This document shows, piece after piece, positions 32,826 to 52,642 of a stretch of DNA of 64,000 nt. Numbering within the stretch: the first letter of the stretch is position 1; the number at the start of each line of letters is the position of its first letter. The DNA is taken from assembly GCA_003599505.1 (NCBI GenBank), contig QZKO01000053.1:3378-67377 (forward strand), written 5' to 3'. Below the pieces are notes generated by a model. That model worked only from the letters and a program-made list of their open reading frames with translations, searched no databases and was not told where the DNA came from. The translations under genes were made by a program, and so were the position numbers. The stretch comes from Nitrospiraceae bacterium. Lineage in GTDB: Bacteria > Nitrospirota > Thermodesulfovibrionia > UBA6902.

Positions 32826-34253
32826 GTGGAAGAAAACGGAACAAAAAACAAAATGTGGGCTTTGCTCATCACAGGCGCTTTGATACTCATCAGTTTTATG
32901 TATTATAAGACGAATGTCTTTTATATGTATCTGATTGCGTACATCTGGTTCGGATTCGCATACGGGATGATGCTGCAATACGGAAGATTCTGCTTTGCCT
33001 CTGCATCGAGAGACCTTTTTGCCGCGGGCGTTCCGAGAATGGCAGTGGGCATCCTTGTAGCCCTTATGTTCTTCAGCCTTATCCAGGCGACTCTTGCTTC
33101 AACCAATATGAGCACATTCCATCCCGCTCCTTTCGGGATTCACACCCTGATAGCAGGCATGATCTTCGGTGTAGGCATGGTCCTTTCAGGAGGCTGCGCG
33201 TCGGGTTCGCTTTATAAGATCGGCGAGGGGAACATGACGTCTTTCCTGGCCGCATTCTTCGGACTCTGCATCGGTCAGGCTGTATTCGTGGACGTAAAGT
33301 GGTTCGATTTTCTGATGCCCCAGAAGTGGGTGGCTGCCGCAGCCGCAAAAGGACTTCCCGCGGATAAAATGACCTCTTCTTTTGATACATACCTTGCAGG
33401 GTACGTCTGGGACCAGCCGACGGTCCGGATGTCAGACCTGCCGGCGATCAAGGAGGCCCTGCCCGGCGCATCCAAATATTTCATTGGCGACGCGCTTCTG
33501 ACAGCCCTTATCCCGGCGGTAATACTTCTTATCGTAATCTATGCCTTTTATATAAGAAAAGGTTTTCTTAAGAAACGCGCAAAGCAAAAAGGCGGCGCAG
33601 CCACCGGCTTTGGCGATGATGTCGCAGGCATCTGGAATATGGTAACCGCTTCCCAGAGAACAACGATTATGGGTGTTTTAATCGGTATCGTTGCAGGACT
33701 CCATATATTTGTTATGAAAGGAATGCAGAACAGGTTTGCCGTTGACAATTTCGGAAGGCTTCTCACAAGAATGGGGTTTACGGGAGATGTTTCAACAAGT
33801 GGAAAAGTTTTTGACCCGGGATACTGGTATATCACAAGCCAGGAAGGTCAGTTCGGGGCATGGATCCTGGAAAAATTCGGCTGGAATATGCATGACAACA
33901 TATTTTTTGGCGTCAATAACGGTCTGCCGGAACCATGGCGCAATCCGGCGCTCTGGATGTCCTTCGGTATTATCTTTGGAGCAATGGTAATGGCACGGCT
34001 AAGCAATGAATATAAATTTAAAATGCCCAAGGGCGAGCTTATCGTATGGGGACTTATGGGTGGGTTGCTGATGGGTTTTGGTTCAAGGCCCGCCCTTGGC
34101 TGCAACATCGGAGCTTTCTTTATAAGAGTTGCGGGCGGCGACCCGAGCGGCTGGTTATATGGCGTCGGCATGGTCGGCGGCGCTTTCATCGGCGTAAAAT
34201 TCTTCAACTGGTGGTCTGAGAGGAAAATGGCAAAGGAAATGGAAGCTTTCTAA
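32826..34253 (+). CDS. YeeE/YedE-family thiosulfate/sulfur transporter (GTG start)
   Basis: Two repeat halves carrying GMVLSGGCASGSLYK and ALGCNIGAFF. Confidence 0.75.
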   Translation: MEENGTKNKMWALLITGALILISFMYYKTNVFYMYLIAYIWFGFAYGMMLQYGRFCFASASRDLFAAGVPRMAVGILVALMFFSLIQATLASTNMSTFHPAPFGIHTLIAGMIFGVGMVLSGGCASGSLYKIGEGNMTSFLAAFFGLCIGQAVFVDVKWFDFLMPQKWVAAAAAKGLPADKMTSSFDTYLAGYVWDQPTVRMSDLPAIKEALPGASKYFIGDALLTALIPAVILLIVIYAFYIRKGFLKKRAKQKGGAATGFGDDVAGIWNMVTASQRTTIMGVLIGIVAGLHIFVMKGMQNRFAVDNFGRLLTRMGFTGDVSTSGKVFDPGYWYITSQEGQFGAWILEKFGWNMHDNIFFGVNNGLPEPWRNPALWMSFGIIFGAMVMARLSNEYKFKMPKGELIVWGLMGGLLMGFGSRPALGCNIGAFFIRVAGGDPSGWLYGVGMVGGAFIGVKFFNWWSERKMAKEMEAF

Positions 34254-39739: not shown

Positions 39740-40951
39740 TCAGGATTTTCCTTTAAGAATTCTGTTCCAGTAGAACCACGGCATCAGGTACCTTATCAAT
39801 AACCACATACTGTAGCGCTCCTTGGTCGGGTCCAGCGGGAAAGTAGGGAGAAATTTGTTGTCGTGGTCAAATTCTGCAAGTACAATTTTGCCGTATCCTG
39901 TAATGAGCGGGCAGGATGTATAGCCGTTATATTTGTCAGGCAGTTCAGTCAGAGACTTGCGTTCGATGGCAGCGAGAAGATTTTTCACGACAACCGGGGC
40001 CTGTTTATGTACGGCCGCTCCTGTCTTTGTATCACCTGCGTTTGAGACGTCCCCCAGGCTGAAAACATTCTTGTACCGGTTGTGCTGAAGGGTGTCTCTG
40101 TTTATGTCAACCCATCCGAACGGGTCATCTTTAACTGCGAGGGGACTGTTTTTGATAAAGTCAGGCGCCGAAGCCAGAGGGGAGACGTGAAGCATGTCGT
40201 ATTGAGCAGTGACCTGCTCTTTGCCGTCGCCTTTTATAACTTCAAACACCGCTTCTCTGGTTTTACTTCTGACCTCGATTAACGTGGCCTGATAGGTCAC
40301 TCTTATTCCATACCGCTTGACTACTTTCAGCAGGACCTCATTAATTTCCTTGACCCTGAGCAGCCCCGGTTTCCCTGTAAAAAAGGAGATATCGGATTTT
40401 TCCAATATGCCCCTTTTTCTGAAATTGTCCGCTGCAAGATACATTATTTTCTGAGGAGCTCCGCCGCATTTATTGAAACCGGCAGGCTGTGTGAATACCA
40501 CCTTGCCGCCTGTAAAATTCTTAATGCATTCATAAGTGTAGGGAGCAATATCAAAGCGATAGATCGAGCAGACCCCGTTTTTCCCCAATGCCTCGGATAA
40601 ACCTTTTACAGCGTTCCAGTTCAACTGCGCGCCGCAACAGACAATAAGAAAATTGTAAGTAATCTGTTCGCCTGATTTGGTTATGATCAGATTTTTTTCA
40701 GGCTCGAATTTGTCGGCGCCGTCTTTTATCCATTTGACTTGCGGAGGAATATAATCGGCCTCGTTACGCACTGTATCATTTATGTTGAAAACACCGCCGC
40801 CCACGAGCGTCCAGCCCGGCTGGTAGTAATGTTTGTCGGAAGGTTCTACTATAGCAATATCAAGTTTTGAATTGCGGCGCAGAAGCTGGGCAGCAACGGA
40901 AATACCGGCATTCCCCCCCCCGATGATAAGAATTTGATGATGTTCGTTCAT
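39740..40951 (-). CDS. sqr: Sulfide:quinone oxidoreductase / FCSD-like flavoprotein
   Basis: ILIIGGGNAG with a pyridine-nucleotide disulfide oxidoreductase fold. Confidence 0.6.
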   Translation of the reverse strand: MNEHHQILIIGGGNAGISVAAQLLRRNSKLDIAIVEPSDKHYYQPGWTLVGGGVFNINDTVRNEADYIPPQVKWIKDGADKFEPEKNLIITKSGEQITYNFLIVCCGAQLNWNAVKGLSEALGKNGVCSIYRFDIAPYTYECIKNFTGGKVVFTQPAGFNKCGGAPQKIMYLAADNFRKRGILEKSDISFFTGKPGLLRVKEINEVLLKVVKRYGIRVTYQATLIEVRSKTREAVFEVIKGDGKEQVTAQYDMLHVSPLASAPDFIKNSPLAVKDDPFGWVDINRDTLQHNRYKNVFSLGDVSNAGDTKTGAAVHKQAPVVVKNLLAAIERKSLTELPDKYNGYTSCPLITGYGKIVLAEFDHDNKFLPTFPLDPTKERYSMWLLIRYLMPWFYWNRILKGKS

Positions 40952-45826: not shown

Positions 45827-46159
45827 TTACTTCATGGCAAATTTTCTCGCCATCTTCTGTCCTTCTTCAAGCCTTTCCAGCAGAACCTCTCTCATAAGGC
45901 TGCATGCCATGATGACCTTGGGGTTGGCGACTTTATAATAAACATTGTTACCTTCTCTTCTCGATGAAAGTATCCCCTTCTGTTTCATGACAGCAAGATG
46001 CTGGGAGACATTTGCAGGTGATATTCCCAGAATATTTACAAGCTCTCCAACAGCCAATTCCTTATCTCCAAGGGCATTCAGAATTTCTATTCTCTTGGCA
46101 TTACCAAGCGTCTTGCATATGTCGGCGTGGATTTCATGAATTTTCTTGCTCATTATCAT
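45827..46159 (-). CDS. ArsR/SmtB-family transcriptional regulator
   Basis: Winged HTH ELAVGELVNILGISPANVSQHLAVMKQKGIL. Confidence 0.8.
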   Translation of the reverse strand: MIMSKKIHEIHADICKTLGNAKRIEILNALGDKELAVGELVNILGISPANVSQHLAVMKQKGILSSRREGNNVYYKVANPKVIMACSLMREVLLERLEEGQKMARKFAMK

Positions 46160-46218: not shown

Positions 46219-46641
46219 TCAAAATGTCAGGTTCATATCCGCCATTATAACAACCTCTTTGTAGTATGTGGCAGGGTTTGCAAGCTTAACCCCTTCAATA
46301 AAATTTGTCTCACTCATCCCAAACAGCGGGACATTCAATGGACAAGCTAAAAGTTTTGCTCCCTCCATGTGCAGCATAACGAACAGGTCTTCAACATTCG
46401 GCAGTTCCATTTCTTCCATTCTTCTCATTACAGCTTCGCCAAATTCTTTGGGCTGATCAGGCAGGCATTGAAGGGTCTTTACCTTCTCCTTGTGAAGTGC
46501 ATTCACGCCGCGTGAGCCAAAGAATATCGTGACCTTTGAACCCTCTCTTAAAAGGCTTAATGCAGTCATGAGGGCATTATAGACCTGACAAAGCTCATCA
46601 TGGAAACACATTATAGAGACATTCTTTACTATTTTTTCCAT
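46219..46641 (-). CDS. DsrE/DsrF-like family protein
   Basis: KVTIFFGSRGVNAL... (PF02635-like). Confidence 0.5.
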   Translation of the reverse strand: MEKIVKNVSIMCFHDELCQVYNALMTALSLLREGSKVTIFFGSRGVNALHKEKVKTLQCLPDQPKEFGEAVMRRMEEMELPNVEDLFVMLHMEGAKLLACPLNVPLFGMSETNFIEGVKLANPATYYKEVVIMADMNLTF

Positions 46642-46657
46642 CTTGCACCTCCTGATT

Positions 46658-47845
46658 TTAAGGAAGATTAGTCAGTCCTCTTTTAATCTTCCAGAGGTAA
46701 TATTTTTCGAAGGCCAGTTTCGCCCATTTATAACTGAGGCCTACTTTAAGCTCTGCTTCCCGCCGTGGTGGAAGAACAGGGTATGCCTTCATCAACGCCC
46801 CTTTATTCCCCATATCCATAATACAGAGGGCCCCGACAGGCTCGGTTTCGGGAGAAGGCTTTCCGAGTATTTCTGCCGCAATGCTCTTTGCCGCATCCTT
46901 TGCCATATGCTCAGTCATGAATCCTGTCTTTGGTACACCTGTAGGAACAGGCGTCTGTTCCGGCGGCGCTATTACTATTGCAACCCCTACAGAAAAGATA
47001 TTTTTATAGCTCTTGTGACGGTAATTGGCATCAACAGGAATAAAACCTTTGGGATTGCCGAGATGGAATACGGCCTTGACGCCTGCCATTGGAGGGGCAA
47101 ACATGGCGAGCCTGAAAGGCAGCTTTATTCCGTCTTTCAACCTGACTTCATCAGGAACGAACTCTTCCACTGTCTGGTTTGCGATGACTTTGATTTCCCT
47201 GTCTGCGAATTCATCTTCCATCATTCTTCTGGATGTTCTGAGCCCGCCGATTCCAAAATGACCGATATAGGGTTCGGAAGTAACAAAGGTCATGGGGACC
47301 TTGTGCCGTATGTTTCTTTTCCTTAATTCGGTGTCTACCTCAAACGCATATTCATAGGCCGGCCCGAAACAGCTTACTCCCTGCACGGCGCCGACAACGA
47401 CCGGGCCGGGGTTTTCAAGGAATCTGTCCCAGGCCTTCTTTGTTTTCACGGCCTGATCCAGTGTAAAAATACATTCCGTATGCCCGCCGTAAGGACCAAA
47501 TCCCGGAACTGATGAGAAGCCAAGGTCGGGCCCGGTAGCTATTACAAGATAATCGTATCGAAGCTCCTGTGTTGCAGTAACAACTTTTGCCGCGTCCGCG
47601 TCCACGCCGACCGCCGCTTCACATATAAATTTTATGCCTTTGCCGGTGAGCATATTTTCAAGTCCGATAGTTATTTCTTCGGGTCTTCTCCAGCCCATTG
47701 ATAACCAGGGAAGGGAAGGGACAAAGACAAATTTGTCCGTGTCGCAGACTAACGTTATCTCGGCCTTGCTGCCGAGCAGCCTTCTCAATTCAAAGGCGGA
47801 GGTCAGCCCCCCGAAAGAACCTCCAAGAATTACTATCTTTGCCAT
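46658..47845 (-). CDS. sqr: Sulfide:quinone oxidoreductase
   Basis: KIVILGGSFGGLTSA with an SQR-type flavoprotein fold. Confidence 0.7.
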   Translation of the reverse strand: MAKIVILGGSFGGLTSAFELRRLLGSKAEITLVCDTDKFVFVPSLPWLSMGWRRPEEITIGLENMLTGKGIKFICEAAVGVDADAAKVVTATQELRYDYLVIATGPDLGFSSVPGFGPYGGHTECIFTLDQAVKTKKAWDRFLENPGPVVVGAVQGVSCFGPAYEYAFEVDTELRKRNIRHKVPMTFVTSEPYIGHFGIGGLRTSRRMMEDEFADREIKVIANQTVEEFVPDEVRLKDGIKLPFRLAMFAPPMAGVKAVFHLGNPKGFIPVDANYRHKSYKNIFSVGVAIVIAPPEQTPVPTGVPKTGFMTEHMAKDAAKSIAAEILGKPSPETEPVGALCIMDMGNKGALMKAYPVLPPRREAELKVGLSYKWAKLAFEKYYLWKIKRGLTNLP

Positions 47846-47855
47846 GTTGCCTCCT

Positions 47856-48137
47856 TTAAAATATTCCCACTACCTTGTCTTCATCGGCCATTATTCCAAC
47901 CAGGCCGTCATAACTTAATTTTTTTATTCCCCCCTCCAGTTCCCCGTCTTTTAAACCCCTTAATCTCAGGTCATCTTCAAGGACGTATAAAATCCCGCAA
48001 AAACCTTCGAGCCTTTCCTTTTTAGCAAAATATACCGCATTCTGAACCAGGCAGATATCGGCAGACAGGTCCCTTGCAAGCTTGACCCCTCTTTTCCCAT
48101 CCTGTGTATCAGGCCCGCTTTTGACAATAACAAACAT
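47856..48137 (-). CDS. dsrH: DsrH/TusB-like protein
   Basis: Small protein at the third position of an E-F-H operon. Confidence 0.55.
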   Translation of the reverse strand: MFVIVKSGPDTQDGKRGVKLARDLSADICLVQNAVYFAKKERLEGFCGILYVLEDDLRLRGLKDGELEGGIKKLSYDGLVGIMADEDKVVGIF

Positions 48138-48147
48138 AATGACCTCC

Positions 48148-48501
48148 TTAATAAATCAATGTTGTCTTTGCATTTTTAACAAGCTCTGCTATCTCAGCGC
48201 CGGTTATTACCTTAATCCCTTCAGGGATATCCGCCGTATCCATGTCCTGTTCTCTGATTGAATGCTTATCCGCGTATACGTCAACCCCCATCTCCATACA
48301 GTCCGTCAGGGCCTCCCCCAGATTTGTAAAGCCTGTGTCCGTATCGTCCTGCCCCTGCTTTGCAAGCAAAACCCCGGCGTCAATCAGAATGAGGTCTACA
48401 CCTAATTCATCCGCAACGCCGCCCATGGCATGCCTTACAGCCTCTGCAGCATTAATATCACCATAAGGCGACCTTCTCAAAATAATCGCAATGTCTTTCA
48501 T
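48148..48501 (-). CDS. dsrF: DsrF/TusC-like protein
   Basis: MKDIAIILRRSPYG...LILIDAGV. Confidence 0.6.
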   Translation of the reverse strand: MKDIAIILRRSPYGDINAAEAVRHAMGGVADELGVDLILIDAGVLLAKQGQDDTDTGFTNLGEALTDCMEMGVDVYADKHSIREQDMDTADIPEGIKVITGAEIAELVKNAKTTLIY

Positions 48502-48510
48502 AATATCCTC

Positions 48511-48867
48511 CTATGCTCCCATATTCAGCCAGATATCGGTTTCACCCATTGTCTTAAAAAGACCCTTGAGTGTGCCGACTTCCGCGTTATCAAGATAATC
48601 ATTCTTCGCTGCACGGCGAAAGTTAAGACATCCGCCTCAGAGATATACCCTTAAACCTTTCTCGATAAGCTCTGTGAACTTCTCCTCAGCATTTGTTATA
48701 CCCTTTGCTTTCTGCCCTTTTAAAAAACAATACACCCCGTCACCTGACGCGATGACGTTGACCGTATGTCCTTTACTCAGGGCAGATTCCGCAATCTTTA
48801 CCGTGGTAAGGGTGTTCTCATAAGAATACGGCGATGTGCCTAACAACAGTGTAAAAGTCTTACTCAT
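48511..48867 (-). CDS. dsrE: DsrE/TusD-like protein with in-frame UGA (candidate selenocysteine) at 48637-48639
   Basis: The 76-aa track ORF stops at TGA and the frame continues GGCLNFRRAAKNDYL...WLNMGA* (TusD C-terminal half). The UGA falls at or near the conserved active-site Cys, giving a UxxC motif. A hairpin follows immediately downstream. Confidence 0.6.
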
Positions 48868-48902
48868 CTTATCCTCCTAAGTTTGGATTTTTTATCCTTC
48901 CC

Positions 48903-50090
48903 CTATTTCTTCTTTAATTCAATCCAGGTTACAAAAATGTAAAAAGCCAGAAGTATTGCCAGCACGCCAATTAAAGAACCTCCCCAGCCAAGCTTTTCAG
49001 GCAGGAATACCGTTTTTCCGTAGAGCCACCCCTTTCCCGCCTGTTCTCCATAAAGAGGCACCCATAATCCCGCAACGAGCATTGCCCCAAGCACAGCAAA
49101 CCAGTGTCTTATATATCCCTCGGCCGACCGCCAGAGCATGCCGGCTGCTCAACCTCCCGTCATGACCATTCCGAACCCGAAAAGCGCCCCGCCTATGATA
49201 CTGTGCATGCCTGCCGGAAGGATGAACATATCAGCAGGCCTGAAGCCGTTTGCTTTTATAATGGCAAACCCCACCGTCCCTATCATCAGGCTAAGCAGGA
49301 GATTCCGCATGGGCTCATTGTGCTTTGTTGTAAAGACTTCCCTGAACCCGGCGGATATACAGAAAGAGGACCTCTGGAATACTATCCCGAAGGCAGCGCC
49401 GAAGAGCAGTATGCCTCCCAGGACATATTTTCCTGTGACAAAATAAACTGAGGCTATGATAAACATTGTGATTGCAACAACAAGACCTATTAACGGATAA
49501 TTAACTACCCTTGTAATCTTTTTTTCAGGAACTGTTTTCAGATCAACGAGTTCTGTGAACTCCATTTTTTCCGCCTCTCTGAAGGCCTGCCATATCATGA
49601 ATTTTCCGCCGAAATAAGCGCCTGCGAGCAAACCTGTCATCATATATAATCCGCTCAGAGACAGGGACATGATTGATGAATAAAATCCTCCAAAGATGCA
49701 GGCGCCGACAAGGAAGCTGCCGAGACCCATCAGGGCCCCGCCGGCAAAACCCTGTATATAACCGGATGTTGAATCTTTTCTGAGTTTAAATTGTCGTGAA
49801 AGGAGGGCGGAGATAAGGGTGCCGAATATCAGTCCGAAATTCAGAATGCTGATAATACTCAGATGGGGCGGCGTTAAGGTCCCCCAGGGCGGCGTTATAT
49901 TCAAACCTGCCAGCCTGTACATCCATATGCCCCAATCAGCAATAGCCGGATAAATACCGCCCAGGGGCATCAGGAATAAAAACATTAATATATTCAGGAA
50001 CGCAACCAGAATGCCGCCAAGCCACAGCGGCCAGGTCTTCTCAAAGAGATTCTTATATAGTTTTCCATGAAAATATTCTGCGAGTGTCAT
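48903..50090 (-). CDS. YeeE/YedE-family transporter with in-frame UGA (candidate selenocysteine) at 49149-49151
   Basis: Track ORFs 49149..50090 and 48903..49139 are in the same frame, separated by TGA plus 3 codons. The junction GFGMVMTGG-U-AAGMLWR aligns with the GGCxSG motif of the paralogue at 32826. Confidence 0.6.
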
Positions 50091-50108
50091 GCATATCTCC
50101 TTCTTAAT

Positions 50109-50450
50109 CTATTTTTTTCTGTCCCCGTGATACTTGCCTTTTTTTGTAACGGGACAACATTCAGGTCCCGGCAGTTCGTCAGGGTAATCTTTTTTGAGTA
50201 TTTCGAGCAGATCAGGGATGAGCGGGTTTTTCAGAAAGTAACATCTGAGCCTTCCGTCTACAAAGTAATCAATGATGCCCGCATGCCTTAATGCGGAAAG
50301 ATGCTGGGAGACATTGGACTGGCTGAGGTCGAGAAATCCCTCGAGGTCGCTGACGCACTTTACGCCCTTTATCAGTTCTTCTAAAATTGCGATCCTTGCC
50401 GGATGCGCTACCAGTTTTATCAGATCTATTCGTGATGATAACTCATGCAT
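50109..50450 (-). CDS. ArsR-family regulator with Cys-rich C-terminus
   Basis: HTH SDLEGFLDLSQSNVSQHLSALRHAG. Confidence 0.75.
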   Translation of the reverse strand: MHELSSRIDLIKLVAHPARIAILEELIKGVKCVSDLEGFLDLSQSNVSQHLSALRHAGIIDYFVDGRLRCYFLKNPLIPDLLEILKKDYPDELPGPECCPVTKKGKYHGDRKK

Positions 50451-50512: not shown

Positions 50513-52642
50513 TTATCCGACCCGGACTTTCCACGCCGTCACGTCTTTTTTGTCCTCAAGGATCACGCCTTTCTCCTCAAGCTCTTTCCTTATCGCGTCG
50601 GCCGCAGCCCATTCTTTCTTTTTCCTCGCGTCCTGCCGTTCCGAGATTTTCTGAAGGAGGGCCTCTTCGGAAAGCTCTATCTTTTTTACCTTCATCAACG
50701 AACGATACCATTCATCGGGGGTCTTGTTGAATATGTTCAGAACGCCGCCTATGTCGGCAAGCAGGTCGCTTGTCCTGACGACGAGCTCCTTTGCCTTCTG
50801 ACCGGAAGGCTTTGAATCGAGAAATCTGTTTACTTCCCTGATGAGCTCAAAGATAAATCCCAGCGCCGACGCCGTATTGAAGTCGTCGTTCATAGCGTGA
50901 TGAAATTTATCTTTAAAGGCCGAAAGCATTTTTTCGAGGTCGGCGGAGGTGCCGGGCTTTTCGGCGGTCCCTGCTGTTTCAAGAAAATCCTTGATCCTTG
51001 TGACCGTTGTGTAATATCTGTCTATGGAGAGCTCCGCCTCGGTCAACTGGGCGTCTGAAAATTCTATCGGGCTCCTGTAATGCGACGTGAGCAGGAAGTA
51101 GCGGACAACCTCCGGTTCGTATTTTTCCAGTATCTCCCTGATGGTGAAAAAATTGCCGAGGGATTTCGACATCTTCTCTTTGTCGACGGTAATAAACCCG
51201 TTGTGTATCCAGTATTTCACAAAGGGCTTTCCGGTAAGGGCTTCGCTCTGGGCGATCTCATTTTCATGATGAGGGAAAATAAGGTCGGCCCCGCCGCCGT
51301 GTATGTCGAAGCTCTCGCCGAGGTATTTTGACGACATCGCGGTGCACTCGATATGCCATCCGGGCCTGCCTTTCCCCCACGGGCTTTCCCACCACGGCTC
51401 GCCTTCTTTTGAAGATTTCCACAGGGCGAAATCAAGGGGGCTCCTCTTCCTTTCGTCGATATCGACCCTCGCGCCGGCGACAAGGTCGTCGGTGTTCTTT
51501 TTCGAGAGCCTGCCGTATGAATGGAATTTGCTCACTTCAAAATAGACGTCGCCGTTTATGCTGTACGCATAATCTTTGTCGACCAGTCCCCTGATCGTCT
51601 CTATCATCTCCTTTATATGGTCCGTCGCGTCAGGCTCGATGTCGGCCCTGCTTACGCCTAACATTTCCATGTCCCTGTAATATTCTTCCGTGTATTTTTT
51701 CGCGATCACATCATATGTAACGTTGTCCTTCGCGGCCCGCGCTATAATCTTGTCGTCGATATCGGTTATGTTCCTCACGTGGGTCACCTGAAAGCCTTTA
51801 TACCTCAAATATCTTTTGATAATGTCGAAGACGACCGCGCTCCGCGCGTGTCCGAGATGGCAGACGTCATAAGCCGTTATCCCGCATACATACATTTTCA
51901 CATGGCCCGGGACCAGGGGGACGAAATCCTCTTTTTTACCGCTCATCGTGTTGTAAACCTTTATAGTTTCACCTTTGCCTTCCAATGCGCCGATTCTCCT
52001 TTCAAGTTCTGAAATATGGTTCTTCATTTCTTCGAATTTTTCTTCGACAGGGTCGGGGATATGCACATGGTCCAGCATCTCCACGAGGCCTTCATTGAAG
52101 ATCTTGACGACTTTCTTTTTTATCACCCTGCCGGGGACCCCCACAACGATGGAATTGTCAGGCACGGAATGAAGCACCACGGAGTTGGCGCCTATCTTGA
52201 CATTGCTGCCGATGGTGATCGCCCCTAAAATCTTGGTCCCCGCGCCTACGACTACGTTATTGCCGAGGGTAGGGTGCCTTTTGCCCTTTTCCTTGCCGGT
52301 CCCCCCAAGGGTCACGCCCTGATAGAGGAGCACATTTTCCCCGATCTCCGCCGTCTCCCCGATAACAACCCCCATCCCGTGATCTATGAAAAACCCCTTT
52401 CCTATCTTCGCGGCAGGGTGTATTTCAATGCCAGTGAGAAATCTTGCCAGTTGAGACAAAAAACGCGGTAAAACGGGAAGATGCATTTTATACAGCAAAT
52501 GGTTGACCCTGTAAAAAATAATCGCGTGAAACCCGGCGTAAGAAAGAATGACTTCAAGTTTGCTCCTTGCTGCCGGGTCCATCCTGAAGACGGTCTGGAA
52601 ATCGTGCCTTATGTCATTTAATAAACCCATTATCCCATCCAA
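50513..52642 (-). CDS. cysE-cysS: Serine O-acetyltransferase (CysE) fused to cysteine--tRNA ligase (CysS) in one 709-aa ORF
   Basis: N-terminal hexapeptide-repeat CysE ([29 protein letters not shown]). C-terminal CysS with CHLGHAR (HIGH) and KMSKSLGN. No stop codon between them. Confidence 0.7.

Follow-up and report, generated by a model that had tools for sequence, protein, structure and literature searches.

We describe a YeeE/YedE-family gene in which an in-frame UGA at codon 314 appears to be decoded as selenocysteine (Sec) at the central conserved cysteine of a membrane channel, a reading to which we assign a probability of roughly 0.85 on comparative sequence evidence. The gene lies on the minus strand (48903..50090) of a 64,000-nucleotide stretch of DNA from a Nitrospiraceae metagenome-assembled genome (MAG; GenBank assembly GCA_003599505.1, contig QZKO01000053.1, positions 3,378 to 67,377), analyzed here as a whole and referred to as the window, with coordinates counted from its first letter. 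The UGA holds the place of a cysteine present in every full-length homologue, the segment that follows it is maintained as coding sequence, the RNA directly downstream is constrained at synonymous sites in UGA-bearing genes, and the gene belongs to a conserved operon in which the next gene, dsrE-like, carries an in-frame UGA of its own.

Gene layout and reading frame

On the minus strand, the reading frame opens with an ATG at 50090, runs through 313 sense codons to a TGA (49151..49149) and continues through 81 sense codons to a TAG at 48905..48903, giving one gene of the Pfam family PF04143 with 395 codons including the UGA. An earlier model-generated note on this DNA, hereafter the sequence-only reading, had described two open reading frames in one frame, 50090..49149 (313 residues) and 49139..48903 (78 residues), separated by the TGA and three sense codons, and this layout is what we find. 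The junction it gave, GFGMVMTGG-U-AAGMLWRSAEG, reads the same on our translation; the cysteine version of the motif that it placed in the first half of the protein, LVGACIFGG, is present (Cys131, read from 49700 to 49698), as is the motif GMVLSGGCASGSLYK in the intact paralogue at 32826.

TGA terminates 22 of the 63 genes in the window, as well as several of the compared yedE genes themselves, and since it still serves there as an ordinary stop, the recoding would be local and not a reassignment of the genetic code. When all window genes were examined for frames joined across a TGA, a convincing continuation was found for dsrE and yedE only. The public record that is 100% identical to the window protein (P0001) is annotated as a 313-residue hypothetical protein. 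Four public records (P0001, P0004, P0011 and P0027) are annotated as proteins of 311-313 residues ending at the UGA, under the names 'hypothetical protein' or 'YeeE/YedE family protein', and their C-terminal 81 residues are either annotated as a separate product or omitted.

Conservation of the UGA codon and of the segment downstream

The sequence-only reading had proposed a search for TGA-containing YeeE homologues, and at the DNA level this search yields 24 loci: the window, four loci (L001-L004) from four GTDB species of Thermodesulfovibrionia/Nitrospirota, and 19 metagenome contigs. The patterns used to scan genome contigs were biased toward Cys-type proteins and gave the four UGA loci just named, the remainder coming from the metagenome scan, in which 80 of about 295 candidates were kept. 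The homologous codon is TGA in these 24 loci, which span 44-91% protein identity, and TGT or TGC in 112 loci.

At the protein level, about 43 clusters (formed at 90% identity, and 44-93% identical to the query) all terminate at the motif ...GFGM[VT][IM][TA][GD]G, and the column that follows this terminus is cysteine in all full-length homologues, even those with only about 30% identity. The proposal that the UGA falls exactly on a conserved cysteine is therefore borne out, both by this column and by the TGY codons of the 112 loci. Full-length homologues all measure about 390-410 residues. None of them stops at the UGA position, so that the 313-residue N-terminal part, which the sequence-only reading had named as a form whose conservation would speak against it, is not the conserved full-length form.

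The segment downstream of the UGA is translated as part of the gene. Its open frame extends for 80-105 codons in each locus long enough to show it, and the encoded tail retains 50-96% protein identity among loci. Codon differences with respect to the window are predominantly synonymous in the closest relatives (synonymous:nonsynonymous ratios of 18:3, 20:8, 23:5 and 28:11); of ten such comparisons, the six with the closest relatives show more synonymous than nonsynonymous changes, and the four with more distant ones show similar numbers of both.

In a neighbor-joining tree computed on the region before the UGA, the UGA-type proteins form one clade with a Cys-type clade as sister, and a further Cys-type group (P0005-9, corresponding to loci L064/L065) nests inside the UGA-type clade. 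Because this Cys-type group is nested within a single UGA clade, the tree suggests one gain of Sec followed by at least one reversion to cysteine. One genome, MAG SURF_45, carries two UGA-type yedE paralogues, P0004 (84% identity to the window protein) and P0011 (66%), which lie about ten locus tags apart on a single 40-kb contig (QZJG01000024.1, the contig of L004).

The channel and the replaced cysteine

The product is a predicted YeeE/YedE-family membrane channel of about ten helices. Translated with cysteine at codon 314, it matches PF04143 (Sulf_transp) in two stretches that score 148 bits (cut-off 27), and the NCBIfam model NF033796 (YedE/FdhT) aligns to it collinearly across the UGA, with residues 83-391 matched to model positions 75-380 of 387. 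Sequence matches in the PDB below E = 0.1 are to YeeE/TsuA only, with 6LEO at E = 1.8e-18. Relative to the YeeE of Spirochaeta thermophila (StYeeE), the two halves of the window protein occur in swapped order, with residues 228-335 aligning to StYeeE 6-112 and residues 62-170 to StYeeE 218-328.

This alignment places the UGA within a known set of pore residues. In the StYeeE crystal structure, three cysteines stand in line about 7 Å apart at the thinnest part of an hourglass; Cys293, on the periplasmic side, is the one in contact with thiosulfate, and Cys22 and Cys91 can form a disulfide (PMC7449682). Substitutions C91A and C293A abolish complementation, and the three equivalent cysteines of Escherichia coli are essential and not replaceable by serine (PMC7449682). 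In the window protein, Cys131 (codon 49698..49700, minus strand, in LVGACIFGG) corresponds to Cys293, the periplasmic entry cysteine, and is invariant in both of our alignments (A1 and A2); Cys244 (codon 49359..49361, minus strand, in QRSSFCISAGFRE) corresponds to Cys22 on the cytoplasmic side and is invariant in alignment A1; and codon 314 (49149..49151, minus strand), the proposed Sec, corresponds to Cys91. The sequence-only reading had placed the UGA at the conserved cysteine of the second-repeat GGC motif. The motif stands, and the position can now be specified as the equivalent of Cys91, the central cysteine of the three, located in the C-terminal half of a permuted protein. In one UGA-type subclade (P0030-P0037 and P0041; L066-L070, L076 and L077), the Cys22 equivalent is replaced by glycine (QRSGLGF) and GG-U by DG-U, so that the triad is reduced there to Cys131 and Sec314.

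A structural model was made for P0005, a Cys-type orthologue 64% identical to the window protein. The AlphaFold model (pLDDT 89.1, pTM 0.87) matches chains of the PDB with probability 1.00 only for YeeE/TsuA, at TM-scores of 0.43-0.54, and the swapped halves may contribute to these modest values. The window protein thus shares with the TsuA/YeeE channels of S. thermophila and E. coli (6LEO, 6LEP, 8J4C, 8K1R) sequence homology and the three-cysteine line, with the putative Sec at the central Cys91. It differs from them in its swapped halves, in being about 60 residues longer, in having Sec for Cys, and in its partner, which here is DsrEFH-like and in the TsuA system is the TusA-like YeeD.

A hairpin specific to UGA-bearing genes

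Counting nucleotides from the U of the UGA, a hairpin resembling a selenocysteine insertion sequence (SECIS) occupies nt 16-35 (49117..49136, minus strand; CUCUGGC-GGUCG-GCCGAGGG), with an apical GGUC at 49129..49126. The consensus of this conserved element is CUC(U)GGC-GGUCN-GCCGAG(GG). All 23 distinct UGA sequences are able to form the hairpin, and 87-88% of the cells are paired in its two register variants. Registers were counted on the alignment for these two variants and for the helix proposed previously, an ungapped 7-bp register being seen only in per-sequence folds.

The element is tied to the presence of the UGA. GGUC is found at nt 23-26 in 22 of the 23 UGA genes, against none of 101 distinct Cys-type genes (Fisher p = 2e-23). 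The arginine codon at +7 is xGG in 22/23 UGA genes, against 0/15 Cys-type genes with an identical RSAEG peptide, in which CGC, CGT or CGA is used instead (p = 1e-9). Similar preferences hold in the UGA genes for glycine +11, encoded by GGA in 22/23, and for alanine +9, encoded by GCC in 20 of the 22 sequences with alanine at that position. At other four-fold sites of the same alignment three or four codons are used, and the third base of serine +8, which is the fifth loop nucleotide (position 27), varies freely. The nested Cys-type group (P0005-9, L064/L065) has lost the hairpin codon preferences. As judged from this codon usage, synonymous sites are constrained at the RNA level, and the constraint is specific to UGA-bearing genes.

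In three loci (L062, L079 and L091), in which the hairpin spans nt 16-33, the Trp-Arg pair (UGG CGG) is replaced by Gly-Arg (GGC AGG), giving a perfect stem of 6 bp (5 bp in L062) and the loop AGGUCU, which is identical to the apical loop of E. coli fdhF. Here the amino-acid change seems to follow from the demands of the RNA structure.

The hairpin resembles the SelB-binding minihelix of E. coli fdhF (NC_000913, UGA at codon 140), a likeness drawn by analogy from its layout of 3 bp, bulged U, 3 bp and GGUC. In fdhF the GGUC lies at nt 22-25, one nucleotide nearer the UGA than in the window (nt 23-26); the stem sequences differ, and the lower-stem register of the yedE set varies by subclade.

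A different hairpin had been put forward in the sequence-only reading, in which GCCGGC pairs with GUCGGC around an 11-nt loop. This helix does exist, at nt 7-12/24-29, and belongs to the minimum free energy fold of the first 48 nt; its standing as the SECIS did not survive. Tested on the 23 sequences, it leaves only 77% of cells paired, with pair 9-27 broken in 16 of them, and it competes with the nt 16-35 hairpin for nt 24-29; it was rejected as the conserved element.

Operon context

The order ArsR-yedE(U)-dsrE(U)-dsrF-dsrH-SQR-like-dsrE2-like-RND is kept in L001-L004, all from MAGs of Thermodesulfovibrionia/Nitrospirota. All genes named below lie on the minus strand of the window. Downstream of yedE, at a spacing of 36 nt, the dsrE-like gene (48511..48867; PF02635) has its in-frame UGA at codon 77 (48639..48637, RVYL-U-GGCLNF). 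It is followed by genes assigned by profile match and synteny: dsrF/tusC-like (48148..48501, syntenic in L001-L004), dsrH/tusB-like (47856..48137), an SQR-like FAD-dependent pyridine nucleotide-disulfide oxidoreductase (46658..47845) and a DsrE2-like gene (46219..46641; PF13686). An ArsR/SmtB-family regulator stands directly upstream of yedE (50109..50450; profile match, syntenic in L001-L003 and L061), and a second one at the end of the cluster (45827..46159; profile match and synteny). SoxR and sHdrR of the SoxT system are likewise ArsR-type regulators. The arrangement in the window also resembles SoxT1A, as described in a paper whose text does not contain the term 'ArsR' (PMC11582611). Among more distant UGA-type loci, L066-L069 have a type III SQR immediately upstream, and L070 and L091 have the same RND transporter downstream.

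The UGA of dsrE falls on the active-site cysteine position, and the TGA and its 41-codon tail are kept in L001-L004 and in L104/L105. The second candidate Sec codon that the sequence-only reading had placed in this neighboring gene is thus conserved as well. DsrE-like selenoproteins (UxxC) are already catalogued. The dsrE RNA past the UGA is unlike the yedE hairpin, and its single-sequence fold is uninformative. In L104 (2072-2900) and L105 (4001-4830), a decayed yedE lies next to an intact UGA-containing dsrE. The first ~30 codons of this remnant are in frame and are followed by frameshifts and many stops; its tblastn match covers query residues 1-187, with the best segment 80% identical. In this lineage the channel has been lost and the Sec-DsrE retained.

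Proposed mechanism and points against it

In the mechanism we propose, the bacterial Sec machinery would decode UGA-314 with the mRNA hairpin at nt 16-35, within the coding sequence and with its apical GGUC, as the signal. Sec314 would then take the central place in a three-cysteine pore line, Cys131-Sec314-Cys244, as a more nucleophilic central relay residue. The channel would import a sulfur species (sulfane sulfur, polysulfide or thiosulfate) and pass it on, perhaps by way of a short-lived Se-S adduct on residue 314, to a cytoplasmic sulfurtransferase, the DsrE(Sec)FH-like product of the genes that follow directly; the ArsR-type repressors would control the operon. For the sulfur-import function, homology and synteny are what point in this direction. 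A further step, in which the channel Sec and the DsrE active-site Sec would form a two-step selenium relay, passing Se-S adducts from the pore straight to DsrE(U)FH without TusA, is a tentative suggestion that we consider doubtful.

Several observations weigh against this account. The single-sequence fold of the 60 nt after the UGA is no better than that of shuffled sequences (z = +0.38), and an Rfam scan of positions 48300-50300 at E <= 10 returned spurious matches only and no SECIS family. Covariation is weak: pair 18-33 is the only one in which both sides change (from CG to UA, seen in 4 sequences), and the observed score is equaled by 15 of 500 shuffles. The lower-stem register differs among subclades, with no single register fitting all, and the UGA sequences make up one clade, so that they are related and not independent samples. 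Given the weak covariation, the case for the hairpin rests on UGA-specific conservation of sequence and of synonymous sites. The genes selA, selB and selD were not found in the 64-kb window by NCBIfam or Pfam searches of 39 open reading frames and a motif scan, nor was tRNA-Sec, the only tRNA in the window being a tRNA-Leu. In favor of the account, the selC*-bearing genomes surveyed, including Thermodesulfovibrio, are reported to have selA, selB, selC and selD (PMC5389517). On the side of function, the subfamily models score below their cut-offs (NF033796, 143.7 against 350; the two TsuA models NF041049, 75.5 against 645, and NF052577, 96.1 against 400; and TIGR04112, seleno_YedE, 33.6 against 200), and tusA was not found in the window, where none of the open reading frames tested had the TusA CPxP motif or matched the TusA Pfam family.

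Alternative explanations

The alternative that survives best accepts the recoding as proposed and changes the cargo: the channel would move selenium compounds in the manner of YedE/FdhT, and the cluster would be a selenium-trafficking line. NF033796, the model for the YedE/FdhT selenium-metabolism membrane protein, is indeed the best NCBIfam match and is collinear with the window protein from end to end, with the same permuted domain order and about ten helices; YedE also co-occurs with SelD (PMC5322559), and two putative Sec proteins are adjacent in the operon. The scores, however, remain far under the NF033796 and TIGR04112 cut-offs, the neighbors of the channel gene are DsrEFH-like, SQR-like and DsrE2-like sulfur-relay genes and not selD, yedF or a Sec lyase, and the gene directly upstream in L066-L069 is a type III SQR. 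We therefore regard selenium transport as unlikely, although it is the strongest of the competitors.

A second possibility is that recoding depends on this hairpin as well but that the residue inserted, always or when selenium is scarce, is cysteine, delivered by a tRNA-Sec-like selC* tRNA-Cys with the anticodon UCA. Genes for selC* tRNA-Cys are known from Thermodesulfovibrio and from Nitrospirae-like contigs, and opal suppression with cysteine has been obtained in E. coli (PMC5389517), while cysteine is the residue of all non-UGA homologues. Since the same genomes carry both the Sec set and selC* (PMC5389517), cysteine insertion under some conditions stays a minor rival. Yet the window, with its single tRNA-Leu, holds no selC*, and the UCA-anticodon selC* and the dedicated selB*/cysS* were found in Deltaproteobacteria (PMC5389517). 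A TGY codon, like that of the nested Cys-type clade, would moreover be the simpler route to constitutive cysteine, and retention of the UGA and SECIS-like element over 44-91% protein identity argues for a Sec-specific benefit. On this evidence, cysteine insertion is improbable, and decoding as Sec is preferred.

That the locus makes two products, a functional 313-residue protein and an independently started membrane peptide of 78 residues, might be suggested by the ATG three codons past the UGA in the window and by the public annotation of 313 residues (P0001). This codon (+4) is ATG in 11 of the 23 distinct UGA sequences and ATA, ATC or ATT in the other 12, and the lack of a start in these 12 makes a separately initiated downstream gene untenable. 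The three intervening codons, furthermore, show in-frame conservation and fit the motif C-[AG]-x-G of Cys-type proteins, no full-length homologue ends at this point, and a 313-residue form would be missing both the position of the central cysteine and the last helices, which align with the solved YeeE; we consider this explanation very unlikely.

For a window taken from a metagenome-assembled genome, a mistake in sequencing or assembly would be conceivable, as would a pseudogene with a newly arisen nonsense codon. The chance of either is negligible, since 24 loci, assembled independently and drawn from different samples and species, share the TGA and show purifying selection past it, and true decay looks different, as the multiple frameshifts and stops of L104/L105 illustrate. 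The sequence-only reading had judged a chance nonsense mutation implausible and had named sequencing error at the TGA as what would overturn it; the 24-locus comparison agrees with the former and already refutes the latter.

Relation to known selenoproteins and sulfur-transfer clusters

The suggestion that no Sec-containing YeeE/YedE had been described proved mistaken. Peng et al. (2016, ISME J) already list the family in a supplementary table, counting 5 genes from 5 organisms, and reviews of 2022 and 2026 include Sec-YeeE/YedE with the motif GUxSG and the exemplar WP_012471001.1 (PMC9312934, PMC13188914). Zhang and Gladyshev (2008), to whom the 2026 review refers for the family, do not mention YeeE/YedE by name in their main text or supplements, and full-text literature searches combining YeeE with selenocysteine or YedE with selenoprotein returned catalogue-type mentions only. 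Like the catalogued proteins, the window protein belongs to PF04143 and would have a single Sec in a G-U-x-x-G motif, and its relatives L073-L075 have exactly GG-U-[IV]-S-G; the catalogued GUxSG motif in turn fits the Cys91-type GGCASG site. The window differs in its GGUAAG, with alanine for serine, a comparison made with WP_012471001.1 through its published motif alone. The catalogue entries come without a mapping onto the pore triad, a SECIS description, an operon context or a link to Sec-DsrE. Sec-YeeE/YedE itself is thus not new, and the window gene adds a new, mis-annotated member or clade to a rare selenoprotein family that was already known; the added interest lies in the placement of the proposed Sec at the central cysteine of the channel and in its pairing with a Sec-DsrE.

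The operon also has a counterpart among known sulfur-transfer clusters. The yeeE-tusA-dsrEFH type II cluster is common in Nitrospirota, and its YeeE-like protein is suggested to bring in sulfane sulfur derived from polysulfide and so to supply a TusA-DsrEFH-DsrC relay (PMC13293266). In both clusters the channel gene adjoins dsrE-, dsrF- and dsrH-like genes, with SQR genes nearby (PMC13293266); the window differs in that no tusA was found in it and in having UGA at both the central cysteine of the channel and the active-site cysteine of DsrE. The paper describing the type II cluster does not mention selenocysteine (0 occurrences; PMC13293266).

These relations bear on how such clusters are surveyed. 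The clade is stored in public databases as truncated proteins of 311-313 residues (about 43 clusters at 90% identity) that lack the catalytic position equivalent to cysteine and the last helices, and as a consequence surveys of yeeE-dsrEFH clusters based on called proteins will mis-score both the channel and the active site of DsrE. A Sec at the Cys91 position would raise nucleophilicity and lower the pKa at this site, and would constitute natural evidence that the residue performs chemistry on the substrate. With two Sec proteins encoded in succession in a single sulfur-relay operon of subsurface Thermodesulfovibrionia, selenium availability may also affect sulfur cycling there. Were the two-step relay to hold, a YeeE-family pore would use covalent chalcogen chemistry and not only guide thiosulfate by hydrogen bonds, and a selenium dependence would be added to the yeeE-dsrEFH type II route, by which sulfate reducers have been proposed to oxidize or disproportionate sulfur.

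Other genes of the window

A type III SQR-like gene (39740..40951, minus strand) gives a weak match to the NCBIfam model NF049943, 'type III sulfide quinone reductase, selenoprotein subtype', with 209.6 bits against a cut-off of 525. The gene has a complete open reading frame and was rejected as a Sec gene: the continuation past its terminal TGA is not conserved in L066-L068, and the codon is an ordinary stop. The orthologue of this gene is the one that sits directly upstream of the UGA-type yedE in L066-L069. Directly upstream of the ArsR-yedE operon, on the minus strand (50513..52642), a gene encodes a 709-residue fusion of a hexapeptide-repeat, serine-acetyltransferase-like N-terminus with a complete cysteinyl-tRNA synthetase. 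The synthetase part has DALR and anticodon-binding domains, and the protein is not the truncated CysRS* described with selC*.

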